From positions 1 through 64,000 of the IMG/VR virus record IMGVR_UViG_3300032030_000057: 64,000 nucleotides of DNA; one strand, given 5' to 3'. This document shows positions 11,882 through 48,711 of this stretch, piece after piece. Numbering within the stretch: the first letter of the stretch is position 1; every line of letters begins with the position of its first letter. Position numbers and translations under genes: made by a program. The DNA comes from a virus (taxonomy: Duplodnaviria > Caudoviricetes). The notes under the pieces are model-generated. The model was not told the DNA's origin. It was given only the letters and a program-made list of their open reading frames with translations, and searched no databases.

Positions 11882-11914
11882 TGCAAAAATAGGTATTTAT
11901 TTTGAATATTCCAA
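11882..11914 (-). promoter_or_regulatory. Bacteroidetes sigmaA promoter (leftward)
   Basis: Reverse strand TTTGGAATATTCAAAATAAATACCTATTTTTGC. Confidence 0.6.
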
Positions 11915-11934
11915 ATGATTTACAATATTTAACG

Positions 11935-19617: not shown

Positions 19618-19737
19618 TGTTGCAGCTCGACTATGCGAGGGTAAATAGGCGTTAGGCATAGTGCGTTATTAGGGCATGGTGTATCCTTTTGGGTGCATTA
19701 TGCCCTTTTAGGTCGTATTAATCTAAAAGCAGGAATT

Positions 19738-32287: not shown

Positions 32288-32319
32288 TTTGCATATTCAA
32301 AGTTTTATCCGTATCTTTG
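32288..32319 (+). promoter_or_regulatory. SigmaA promoter
   Basis: TTTG-N20-TATCTTTG. Confidence 0.7.
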
Positions 32320-37330: not shown

Positions 37331-37362
37331 TTTGCATATTCAAAACAAAATCACTAAATTTG
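37331..37362 (+). promoter_or_regulatory. SigmaA promoter of the recombination operon
   Basis: TTTG-N20-TAAATTTG. Confidence 0.7.
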
Positions 37363-41269: not shown

Positions 41270-41300
41270 TTTGAATATTCAAAATAGTTTCTTACCTTTG
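41270..41300 (+). promoter_or_regulatory. SigmaA promoter
   Basis: TTTG-N19-TACCTTTG. Confidence 0.7.
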
Positions 41301-42767: not shown

Positions 42768-43055
42768 ATGGTAGCAAAGTCAACACAGTACTATCGCACG
42801 CATCCGAAGGCGCGTGAGAAGAAGAAGAAGTACGATAGTGAGTTCGAGAAGAAGCCTGAGCAGGTAAAGAAGCGCGTCGAGCTCAAGCGGGAGAACCGTG
42901 AGCATGACGAGAAGTATGGCAAGGCATCTCGCAAGGGCAAGGATTTGTCACACACCTCTCATGGTCTTGTATACAAGTCAAAGTCCGTTAACAGGGGGAG
43001 TAAGTCAGATACCGCAGGAGACCGACGTGCTCGCGGTGGCAAGAAGAAGAGATGA
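42768..43055 (+). CDS. Highly basic protein, possibly a degenerate HNH-like fold
   Basis: K/R-rich; GKDLSH...SVNRG. Confidence 0.55.
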   Translation: MVAKSTQYYRTHPKAREKKKKYDSEFEKKPEQVKKRVELKRENREHDEKYGKASRKGKDLSHTSHGLVYKSKSVNRGSKSDTAGDRRARGGKKKR

Positions 43056-43059
43056 GCGT

Positions 43060-43455
43060 ATGAACAACAATCTTACAAAAGGACATCTTCAAACCCTCAG
43101 GGAGAATTACGAGAAAGCGTGTAATGAGTATATCAACACGCTTCTCAATCTCTGGGAGCTTTCACCAGAAAACGGATGGTGGGTTGGTGAGGTAGGCAGT
43201 ATATATTGTCACGAAGCGAATGTATCCATGAACATGGAAGAAATAATATACTGCATAGAGCACAGTGTTAGTCTTAACACCTACTATCAATTTATCGACT
43301 ACACAGAAAAATGTGACGAATACAATTTCAACCGTCTGTCTCTGAAAAGTTTCTGTGAAGGTGCTCCACGAGTACCACAAGAGACGTTCGACAGATTCGA
43401 CGCTCTTAAGCAGGAATTAAATAAGTGTATTAACGACACCAAATCTAAATTCTGA
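43060..43455 (+). CDS. Hypothetical protein
   Basis: Likely start 43060 (MNNNLTK). Confidence 0.6.
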   Translation: MNNNLTKGHLQTLRENYEKACNEYINTLLNLWELSPENGWWVGEVGSIYCHEANVSMNMEEIIYCIEHSVSLNTYYQFIDYTEKCDEYNFNRLSLKSFCEGAPRVPQETFDRFDALKQELNKCINDTKSKF

Positions 43456-43627
43456 TGGCGACAAAAGCAAGGAAACGAAAAGGAAAAATCCGTATCAAGC
43501 AGAGAGTCCTTATCGAGAAGAAGGACAAGACCAATGTTGTCAGGCCTAATACGACTAGGTATCCTAAGGCAAGGACGAAGGTTCCTTCGAATGGTGTTGT
43601 GTTCAAAGTAAAGCTGAAAAAGAAACA

Positions 43628-44044
43628 ATGATTCACAATCTTGCAAACGGAGCAAGACGGTATCTTATCCGTATTGGAAAAGCACTTCCGTTCTTGCTCT
43701 GTTTTATTCTGTCTATATGTTACGCAGAAAACGCGTTTTCTTTGGCCACAGGACGTTTTCTAGAGTTCGATGGATACATTATACTATCGACGCCGATTTC
43801 GACGTTTATAGCCGAGTTTTTCGAGTACGACATTTTGATTGTGATTATTACACTTATCGTAAGCATAGCAATCGAGGCCTGTAAGTGGAACCTGTGGGCG
43901 ACGTTCTATCTGGGTGTCCATCTGGCAGAGAAATCATACTTTACCTTTGAGCTCGAAATATGGCAGATATGGGTCATAATTTGCGGAAATTTCCTCGTAT
44001 CTGTATTATTTTGTTATAAAGGAATGAAAATTTTAGTTAAATAG
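43628..44044 (+). CDS. Multi-pass membrane protein
   Basis: About four hydrophobic segments. Confidence 0.65.
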   Translation: MIHNLANGARRYLIRIGKALPFLLCFILSICYAENAFSLATGRFLEFDGYIILSTPISTFIAEFFEYDILIVIITLIVSIAIEACKWNLWATFYLGVHLAEKSYFTFELEIWQIWVIICGNFLVSVLFCYKGMKILVK

Positions 44045-47046: not shown

Positions 47047-47074
47047 GTGCTGAACGAAAAAAGTTCCAGAAATA

Positions 47075-47106
47075 TTTGGAATATTCAAACAAAGTTCGTA
47101 TCTTTG
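47075..47106 (+). promoter_or_regulatory. SigmaA promoter of the RNA array / dnaN operon
   Basis: TTTG-N20-TATCTTTG. Confidence 0.75.
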
Positions 47107-47159
47107 CAGACGAATAGGATTTTTTGCTATAAATAAAGTATTTAAAGGTTAATACTACC

Positions 47160-47446
47160 AAGCCAAGGTGCTGTGAAGCATAGTAGGCTTTTACGAAGTG
47201 AAATGTGTGCTTATAAATTATATATAAATGATTTTACTCGATTAGTTACACAGCCGAGCGAGGTTTACGTAGAATGTGGTGATTTCATATTCTTTATAGT
47301 TTTTACAGCCGATACATTGTGAAATGCAGTAGGCTTTGTATTGGATTCATTATCCTTCAAAACAACATATCTATATTTTTCTGCTAATTGATTAATAAAG
47401 ATGAGTTGTCTCAAGCTGAGGCGTTGCGAAATGTAGTAAGCTTTGA
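47160..47446 (+). ncRNA. Array of three conserved loop-E/GNRA hairpins separated by U-rich spacers
   Basis: AGCC-AAG-GTGCT-GTGA-AGCAT-AGTA-GGCT (47161); AGCC-GAT-ACATT-GTGA-AATGC-AGTA-GGCT (47307); AGCT-GAG-GCGTT-GCGA-AATGT-AGTA-AGCT (47414). Confidence 0.65.
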
Positions 47447-47454
47447 ACAGATAT

Positions 47455-47527
47455 CGCGGTAGCAGTGTGACAGTCGCATGCTGGGCTCATAATCCAGAGG
47501 TGGGAGGCAGGTTCCACTACCGCAACA
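47455..47527 (+). tRNA. tRNA-Met(CAT)-like element with non-canonical D and T arms
   Basis: Acceptor GCGGTAG/CTACCGC with C1:A mismatch; anticodon arm CTGGG-CTCATAA-TCCAG; no TTC T-loop, no D-loop GG, no encoded CCA. Confidence 0.55.
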
Positions 47528-47556
47528 AATAATTTCACGGAAACAATTGTTAAGCT

Positions 47557-48711
47557 ATGAAGATTTCATTTAAAGTAGACGACGTACTTCCTATGATGTC
47601 GCAGGCGGCATCCGTCGTCAATCCAAAGTCACCGATTCCTGTCCTTACCAGCCTTGTCATCAAGACACGTAAGAAGACTGGGAACGCAACAGTCACCGCG
47701 TCCGACAGCAACACATGGATAGACATGCTCATGCCTCTTGTCGGAGAGGAGAAAGGTGATGATTTTGCATTCACCGTAAACTCGAAAGACTTTGTCGCGG
47801 CCCTGAAGAATCTGTCTGGCAAGACGGTCACACTTGAGCTCAACGAAGAGTCTCACATTGCAAAGGTTACGTACGACAACGGTTATTTCAATATACCGTA
47901 CGACTCTGCGAACGACTTCCCGAGGCCAGTGCCAAGCACGGGAAACAGCGTAGAGTGCTTGGTGGATGCAGGCGTTTTGTACGATGCGATATCTTCGGTT
48001 GTATTTGCGGCGGCATCCAATCTCGTAACCATGCCTTATCTTAACGGAATACATATAGACGTAAGAAATGACATGCTTGTCGCTATTGCTTCAGACTTCA
48101 ACCACGTGGTGCTGTTCAAGGACCATTCGGTACGTTCTGACACAGACACTGGAGACGGAATCAATATACCTAACAAGCCAGCGCGTATCGTCGAGTCGAT
48201 TACGAAGAATACTGAAGGTGTCGTAAAGCTTTCGTTCTGCGACAACACGTTCTCTGTTTCATGTATGTACTACAGGGTGATATCACTGCTCAACGAAGGC
48301 AACTATCCAGACTTCAACAGGATTCTTCCGAAGGAGAGCCCAATCAATGTCACTCTGACAAGAGAAGACCTCCTGTCTGCATTAAAGAGAATACAGCCGA
48401 TGAGCAACACGGCCAGCGAGCTCGTCGTATTCAACTTTACGGAAGGCAACCTCAATATCAGCGTTGAGGATGTTGACTTCTCAAAGTCGGCAGGAGAGGA
48501 CATCAAGTGCGACTATACTGGAGACGGTTTCCGTATAGGACTCAAGTACAGCTACATGGTATCCCTTCTTTCAAACCTGTCTGGCGATAACGTTACCATG
48601 AAGATGTCGCTTCCACAGAAGCCAGTCGTAATTGTTCCAGATTCTCAGGGAGAGACCAGAGAGGTTATATCAATTGTCATGCCCATGAAACTTAACGGAG
48701 ATGTACAATGA
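47557..48711 (+). CDS. dnaN: DNA polymerase III beta sliding clamp
   Basis: 384 aa; P.L..L...ASD..; FP; LNGI..AIASD; GNYPDFNRILP; IGL...Y...L; IVMPM. Confidence 0.95.
   Translation: MKISFKVDDVLPMMSQAASVVNPKSPIPVLTSLVIKTRKKTGNATVTASDSNTWIDMLMPLVGEEKGDDFAFTVNSKDFVAALKNLSGKTVTLELNEESHIAKVTYDNGYFNIPYDSANDFPRPVPSTGNSVECLVDAGVLYDAISSVVFAAASNLVTMPYLNGIHIDVRNDMLVAIASDFNHVVLFKDHSVRSDTDTGDGINIPNKPARIVESITKNTEGVVKLSFCDNTFSVSCMYYRVISLLNEGNYPDFNRILPKESPINVTLTREDLLSALKRIQPMSNTASELVVFNFTEGNLNISVEDVDFSKSAGEDIKCDYTGDGFRIGLKYSYMVSLLSNLSGDNVTMKMSLPQKPVVIVPDSQGETREVISIVMPMKLNGDVQ

Follow-up and report, generated by a model that had tools for sequence, protein, structure and literature searches.

A conserved hairpin with an S-turn-like internal loop and a GYGA tetraloop in leaders of Bacteroidales siphophages, and its counterpart in a chromosomal sRNA-like gene

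Results

Three hairpins in the non-coding region upstream of dnaN

The viral record IMGVR_UViG_3300032030_000057 is a complete genome of 79.5 kb, of which positions 1 to 64,000 form a 64-kb part hereafter referred to as the window. Because the genome encodes a tape-measure protein, a primase-helicase, RecT, RusA and a sliding clamp, the virus was taken to be a siphovirus-type phage. The stretch 47047-47556 is non-coding and flanked by a NUMOD-type ORF and dnaN; within it a promoter is followed by a leader, three hairpins with their spacers, and a tRNA-like gene before dnaN is reached. The features of this locus are the following:

47075..47106, +: Bacteroidetes-type promoter, with a -33 TTTG carrying an extended ATATTCAAA-type box and a -7 TAnnTTTG (read from the sequence)
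47107..47160, +: AU-rich leader of ~50 nt, with a UUUAAAGGUUAAU-like word directly before hairpin 1
47161..47189, +: hairpin 1, with loop GUGA and then a U3 tail; 47.7 bits (model R1)
47252..47280, +: probable decayed hairpin copy (read from the sequence), resembling half-copies in the spacers of the close relative L210
47307..47335, +: hairpin 2, with loop GUGA and then a U2 tail; 47.8 bits (model R1)
47414..47442, +: hairpin 3, with a compensatory U-A pair in the outer stem and loop GCGA; 46.5 bits (model R1)
47456..47524, +: tRNA-like gene (anticodon CAU) whose D and T arms are non-canonical
47557..48711, +: dnaN (sliding clamp), the first protein gene downstream of the array, with three Pfam DNA_pol3_beta domains and PHROG 947

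A preliminary description of this locus, made from the letters alone, had proposed a promoter-driven array, and the consensus -33 TTTG and -7 TAnnTTTG boxes at 47075-47106 agree with that proposal. The two-box consensus has 16 matches in the genome, this promoter among them, and the hairpin module lies behind only one of the roughly ten canonical promoters of the phage. An extended -33 box (TTTG-N-ATATTCAAA) is common to five promoters of the window (11884-11915 on the minus strand, 32288-32319, 37331-37362, 41270-41300 and 47075-47106) and also stands ahead of the hairpin leaders in many relatives. It may be the mark of a temporal promoter class.

Each hairpin consists of an outer stem, an internal loop of the form R-A-R-N / N-A-G-U-A, an inner stem of 4-5 bp, a GYGA loop and a short U tail, and all three copies fold as described at -7 to -12 kcal/mol. 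A strict pattern fitting hairpins 1 and 2 is expected to match the window by chance only 0.01 times, while the 3' half with its U tail occurs three times against 0.39 expected, each time inside the array. When run with filters off, R1 (a covariance model made from 11 hairpins) returned the three copies at 46.5-47.8 bits (E about 1e-10), with the next best place in the 64 kb scoring 13 bits; a covariance model search of the whole 79.5-kb genome yielded no further copies. Pattern, model scores and folding therefore agree on the three hairpins that had been noticed by eye, and the variable inner stem of 4-5 bp, in which all three copies fold and which covaries, was likewise upheld. Two details had to be amended: the tetraloop, first described as a general GNRA, is of the G-N-G-A kind but more precisely GYGA, and the internal loop is indeed asymmetric but sets 4 nt opposite 5 nt, because the neighbouring pair is not maintained.

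The suggested relation to a small Rfam motif such as Flavo-1 found no backing, as no family of Rfam 15 matched the hairpin. The covariance scan of the whole window at the gathering score had a single match, a Pistol self-cleaving ribozyme in the phage early region (19625-19717; 44.5 bits against a gathering score of 34.5), and between 46900 and 47700, at E up to 10, Rfam gave a sub-threshold tRNA and a spurious snoRNA alone. Distant-mode BLAST against the INPHARED phage collection returned no match, and full-text literature searches turned up no description of the hairpin.

Conservation and covariation of the hairpin across related phages

The first homologues came from an exact-pattern scan of viral contigs. 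Most of its matches (43 of 59) were set aside as a near-palindromic hairpin of other contigs of ~85 kb (43 contigs, L004-L062), and several others as perfect palindromes or as lying within coding sequence. The L004-L062 hairpin sits between two genes and has the outer stem of the motif, a U-A-closed G-N-G-A loop and a 3' AGUA; its 5' loop strand can pair with AGUA by Watson-Crick pairing, and it scores only 24-29 bits after having been selected by the pattern. We regard it as an ordinary terminator, or at best as a distant variant of the motif.

Further homologues were reached via dnaN. Used as a single query against viral contigs, dnaN had no matches, whereas an alignment of DnaN from five related complete phages (30-35% identical to that of the window) succeeded and fetched 75 dnaN loci. 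In these, R1 found 25 matches, all on the sense strand of dnaN, all upstream of it, and confined to the ~15 closest relatives. Further scans brought the total to 53 matches, or 51 distinct sequences, and the 46 of phage origin are spread over ~25 related phage contigs. The phages that carry the hairpin are a family of ~80-kb Bacteroidales siphophages.

Both stems covary, with 90-92% of cells paired and 16-25 cells changed on both sides, a level that none of 500 shuffles reached; when the partner columns were slid, the pairing collapsed. Because G-U pairs are frequent in the stems and because all 53 matches lie on the strand of transcription, the element is best regarded as RNA rather than DNA. 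Among the 51 distinct sequences, the 5' loop strand reads R (50), A (51), R (48) and then any base, and the 3' strand N-A-G-U-A has A in 48, G in 47, U in 51 and A in 51. The tetraloop is GUGA in 33, GCGA in 14, GAGA in three and GGGA in one, with an extra fifth pyrimidine (G-N-G-A-Y) in seven of the 51 copies. No sequence departs from the A of the 5' strand, from the last two residues (U-A) of AGUA or from the two G residues of the loop, while the two U-A pairs that close the loop still covary; a mimic of an anticodon loop (7-nt loop) could be ruled out on the covariation of both closing pairs.

An A-G-U-A strand opposite G-A-A/G, with this polarity to the flanking helix, is what we take to be the consensus of the bulged-G motif (S-turn, as in loop E and the sarcin-ricin loop), and at the level of sequence the internal loop fits such a module. 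The conserved, structured RNA handle with a bulged-G-like loop that had been proposed earlier is supported by stem covariation and invariant unpaired bases across the 51 sequences. Pure structure would not need these invariant unpaired residues, so that a factor reading them seems called for.

Placement of the hairpin relative to promoters, tRNAs and ORFs

In the relatives a recurring order was seen: a promoter, a leader of 37-64 nt, a hairpin, often an odd tRNA-like gene with a CAU anticodon, a spacer, a second hairpin and a tRNA. The first hairpin lies 37-64 nt past the -7 box of a consensus promoter, which in most relatives is of the same type as in the window, and the second is followed by an ordinary tRNA (Gln, Ser, Met, Ala, Glu or Phe) starting 5-13 nt past the stem. 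Downstream of this first tRNA come further tRNAs and then dnaN, with a tmRNA in one phage; a tmRNA with its tag peptide was called by ARAGORN at L087:2154-2464 (record of L033, 84.7 kb), where it closes a tRNA cluster immediately ahead of dnaN. Many relatives have a single hairpin, or a tRNA-like gene between two hairpins, and hairpins precede the first tRNA or tRNA-like genes of clusters, not the later tRNAs. Copies are spaced 59-186 nt apart, with tRNA-like genes or decayed copies inside.

Of the 46 distinct phage copies, 19 (~40%) end at most 15 nt before a tRNA or tRNA-like gene. Other copies are found 20-65 nt ahead of ORF starts, in the 5' UTRs of protein genes, and some, which have no promoter of their own, between two genes of the same direction. 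At least three U residues are present among the 5 nt after the stem in 34 of the 46 phage copies and none or one in four; the U tails measure only 2-5 nt, and three copies have none. A generic terminator scan called no terminator at the array, and in the phages no copy was found at the 3' end of a transcription unit, where a terminator would be placed; only in the bacterial sRNA-like gene described below does the hairpin take that position. In the phages, moreover, no promoter intervenes between the hairpin and the tRNA, dnaN or ORF starts, and the gap to the tRNA is too short to hold one, so that any termination at the hairpin must be inefficient or regulated.

In the window, hairpin 3 ends 13 nt ahead of the tRNA-like gene. 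This gene scores 22.2 bits against the Rfam tRNA model (threshold 29 bits) and was not called by ARAGORN; it has a 7-bp acceptor stem, a 'D' hairpin of 6 bp and 3 nt, and a T arm without a T-psi-C loop. It is nevertheless kept, with stem covariation, in at least seven distinct phage sequences, each time directly after a hairpin. In the relative L089 an ordinary tRNA-Met stands in its place, and in a 123-kb phage contig (L222:2700-2800, minus strand) the hairpin is followed by an apparent truncated tRNA made up of an acceptor stem and a T arm only.

Upstream of the hairpins, the word UUAAGU occurred in 8 of 32 stretches against 1.4 expected, an enrichment that concerns only about a quarter of the copies. 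A leader peptide was not apparent, in that short leader ORFs showed no conserved frame in the relatives' loci that were read.

Turnover of array units and pairing potential of the spacers

The metagenome contig L210, whose flanking genes are 89-91% identical to those of the window, contains four intact hairpins. Relative to this contig the window is without one unit, and the break falls within the repeats; hairpin 2 is identical in L210, where the one extra unit comes after it, while hairpin 1 of L210 carries a compensatory G-C to A-U change in the inner stem and a change at the free position of the loop. Array units are thus gained and lost by recombination, as judged from this comparison. 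The conservation of the alignable L210 spacers is similar to that of the coding flanks, and these spacers hold repeated, decayed halves of hairpins. As to the degenerate copy suspected around 47250, R1 did not detect it, but because 47252-47280 matches the half-copies repeated in the L210 spacers it is probably a decayed unit.

These observations bear on the earlier proposal of a repeat-spacer cassette in which constant handles would be combined with variable antisense guides. Comparison of homologous arrays confirmed that the handles are conserved, but the spacers are not hypervariable; since whole units turn over by recombination and the spacers are conserved like their flanks and hold decayed halves, they are unlike diversifying guides, and the cassette model was not supported. 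Its further claim that the spacers are complementary to translation starts found no support among the starts of the phage: when the best duplex energies that leader and spacers reach with the 171 start windows of the phage itself were compared with those of shuffles, 3, 24 and 20 of 30 shuffles did as well, so that pairing with these 171 starts showed no excess over shuffled controls. The many single-hairpin loci and 5'-UTR hairpins also count against an array of guides.

A bacterial counterpart between rex and SUI1

A scan for the exact hairpin core in one genome per prokaryote species gave 37 matches, 32 of which were dismissed as chance on the grounds of an unpaired outer stem. Only four core matches had both a paired outer stem and a U tract, and all of them lie on Bacteroidales or Bacteroidota chromosomes; a fifth bacterial copy was obtained in a model search of 101 Bacteroidales genomes. 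All five share the same place, between a gene for a Rex-type repressor and SUI1, beside genes for an FAA-hydrolase and a UvrD-helicase, and a model made exclusively from phage sequences scores them at 48-52 bits. There was one match per bacterial genome, in model searches that scored only part of the candidates. The hairpin is flanked here by A5 and U7-9 and folds at -15.8 kcal/mol.

Loci of the sRNA-like gene in the five genomes: L177:4100-4290, L188:7100-7290, L194:820-1010, L165:1640-1820, L199:1360-1545

The bacterial unit comprises a promoter and ~190 nt of non-coding sequence, in which an invariant 40-nt block has a pair of variable hairpins ahead of it and a third behind it, with the S-turn/GYGA hairpin coming last. 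The block is apparently single-stranded; a short ORF starting MFKLEE overlaps it, with frames that end differently. Rfam gave nothing relevant at the bacterial loci, and from its layout the rex-SUI1 intergenic unit resembles an sRNA gene that has escaped annotation, with the hairpin as its terminator. The unit is rare, in that the exact block was present in 3 of 201 Bacteroidales genomes sampled, while matches with three mismatches elsewhere in Bacteroidales were rejected as lying in unrelated sequence. A visual likeness between the block and the phage leaders was dropped after nhmmer had returned nothing below E = 8 for this comparison.

A small basic ORF as a candidate partner of the hairpin

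Two further genes of the window were considered in connection with the hairpin:

42768-43055: 95-aa basic protein (PHROG 6437, unknown function), preceding the 58-aa ORF
43455-43631: K/R-rich ORF of 58 aa, candidate RNA-binding partner of the hairpin

A K/R-rich ORF of 58-61 aa lies directly behind the hairpins in six phages; in the window it lies 3.5 kb upstream of them. Of six genomes with the hairpin, five had the ORF, while it was found in none of five relatives that lack the hairpin; this co-occurrence is confounded by phylogeny. Neither Pfam nor PHROG gave a match for the ORF, and the protein database yielded just two close homologues. In relatives, hairpins are found between the 95-aa and the small K/R-rich genes, or directly before the small one. 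The K/R-rich protein might be named as a candidate reader of the hairpin, although as only a lead.

Discussion

To our knowledge, Bacteroidales have neither Hfq nor ProQ, and we know of no general sRNA chaperone or phage antitermination system described for Bacteroidota and their phages, in which RNA-based control is poorly known. The motif reported here is common to many uncultivated phages of rumen or gut type and to a chromosomal sRNA-like gene, and its ~30 nt with invariant non-Watson-Crick residues offer a concrete bait for the factor that would read the hairpin. It can also serve as a marker for stable-RNA operons of phages. New in this work are the bacterial counterpart, the evidence for the turnover of units, the negative outcome of the guide tests and the candidate basic protein.

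We tentatively favour, at a probability of roughly 0.4, the reading that the hairpin acts in leaders as a leaky, terminator-like module, recognised by a factor, that determines RNA 3' ends and the extent of read-through. According to this reading, the hairpin would be a cis-acting RNA module of promoter-proximal leaders, in which a protein of host or phage would recognise the S-turn-like R-A-R / A-G-U-A loop together with the U-closed GYGA tetraloop. Together with its short U tail, the hairpin would then be a weak intrinsic terminator whose strength depends on that factor, in other words a site of attenuation or antitermination. A fraction of the transcripts would stop at the hairpin and yield short leader RNAs whose 3' end is protected, while the others would extend across the tRNA-like gene, the tRNAs and dnaN; a cut by RNase P a few nt downstream might likewise leave the hairpin as the 3' end of a freed leader. 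Protein binding, termination, read-through and processing are thus what we infer, of which read-through would be required because the phage genes behind the hairpin have no other promoter. The link to terminators is favoured by the U-rich tails of 34 of the 46 phage copies and by the bacterial copy that closes a promoter-driven unit, but the weak folding (-7 to -12 kcal/mol) and the short or missing U tails count against it. If the hairpin does gate read-through, this would explain how the phage times the expression of its tRNAs and replication genes.

Alternatively, the units might be trans-acting sRNAs or sponges, whose 3' hairpin handle, shared with a host sRNA, would use or titrate a handle-binding host protein. 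This is a softened form of the earlier guide model, in which base-pairing of the 5' part becomes optional, and we consider it possible but doubtful. An identical hairpin does end a chromosomal sRNA-like gene with an invariant 40-nt single-stranded block, and a promoter followed by ~50 unstructured, AU-rich nt, the hairpin and a U tail corresponds to the layout of FopS (PMC11697453). In one subclade, moreover, the leader is more conserved than coding DNA (52-79% identity for leaders against 55-57% for dnaN DNA), arrays of one to four copies would suit a sponge, and RNase P acting at the adjoining tRNA would free hairpin-ended units. Yet the spacers are not hypervariable and hold decayed hairpins, they show no excess complementarity to the phage's own starts over shuffles, the 40-nt block of the host has no counterpart in the phage leaders, and some hairpins are found within protein-gene 5' UTRs or, lacking a promoter of their own, between genes that run in the same direction. 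As a second alternative, the hairpin might be a pure processing or stability element that punctuates a stable-RNA operon with neither a dedicated factor nor termination, by blocking 3' exonucleases after cuts of RNase P or RNase E type or by preventing the leader and tRNA from misfolding together. The tight gap of 5-13 nt to the tRNA 5' end in ~40% of the copies, the location of hairpins ahead of the first tRNAs of a cluster and not between later ones, and the three copies without a U tail would all be in line with such an element. An exonuclease block, however, needs neither invariant unpaired residues nor a fixed GYGA loop, and the module also precedes protein genes and closes a bacterial sRNA-like gene that has no link to tRNAs, which makes this explanation unlikely.

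The array adjoins replication genes, and its number of units shifts by recombination between repeats, as might be expected of repeats acting at the DNA level (iterons of a replication origin by dnaN, recombination sites or REP-like elements). That explanation is nonetheless highly improbable: the matches are strand-specific and run along transcription in 53 of 53 cases, many G-U pairs of the stems would be A-C mismatches on the opposite strand, the loops are of GNRA type, and the stems covary with differing sequence, so that a sequence-specific DNA binder would not see one site.

A further and rather speculative idea, which we consider unlikely, is that the hairpin is the handle of a still unknown Bacteroidales RNA-binding protein, marking a core chromosomal sRNA and copied by phages in arrays released by tRNA processing so as to hijack or titrate that protein, or else that it is bound by the phages' own K/R-rich protein as a lambda-N-like transcriptional switch of Bacteroidota phages.

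Comparison with known systems

A CRISPR-like array or a solitary-repeat RNA anti-CRISPR was rejected because the spacing is irregular (59-186 nt) and no host arrays were found; at the limited sensitivity of the search, 101 plus four Bacteroidales genomes had at most one place each that matched the model. The sarcin-ricin loop has its AGUA strand 5' of a GAGA tetraloop, with one C-G pair between them, and its GAA strand 3'. In the phage hairpin, AGUA lies 3' of a GYGA loop (GUGA or GCGA in 47 of 51) with 4-5 pairs in between; because the polarity of AGUA is reversed, the hairpin is not a sarcin-ricin mimic, and with this reversal and the intervening helix of 4-5 bp the suggestion of a sarcin-ricin decoy falls away. 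The species 1 and 2 RNAs of T4 are stable RNAs co-transcribed in the phage tRNA cluster, and the hairpin is likewise co-transcribed with phage tRNAs and would likely be released by tRNA-processing enzymes.

Bacteroides sRNAs such as FopS have a single-stranded 5' part and then a terminator hairpin (PMC11697453). As in sRNAs of the FopS/GibS type, the promoter of the phage locus is followed by an unstructured 5' part and then by a 3' hairpin, but this hairpin bears a conserved motif of its own and has no match in Rfam, including the Bacteroides sRNA families. With Rho-independent terminators and attenuators it has in common a stem-loop with G-C base pairs, immediately followed by U residues on the sense strand, and the bacterial copies (five genomes) even carry the classic flanks of an A-tract and U7-9 at the end of the unit. 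In the phages, by contrast, the hairpin is located between a promoter and the genes whose expression depends on that promoter, with a U tract that is short or missing and with modest stability, and its invariant non-Watson-Crick residues go beyond what termination needs.

The nut sites of lambda are, like the phage hairpin, small promoter-proximal hairpins in leaders of early or middle operons, with a GNRA-type or GNRA-like loop of 4 or 5 nt. A loosely conserved linear word stands just upstream of the phage hairpin, and a tiny K/R-rich ORF sometimes comes directly downstream, as N follows nutL. The phage hairpin has no sequence likeness to boxB, however, nor the K/R-rich ORF to N; the hairpin adds an S-turn-like internal loop, a U tail, tandem copies and direct adjacency to tRNAs, and its motif also ends a bacterial sRNA-like gene. 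By analogy, therefore, the hairpin would seem to act most like a lambda nut site or a leader attenuator, while being a member of neither.
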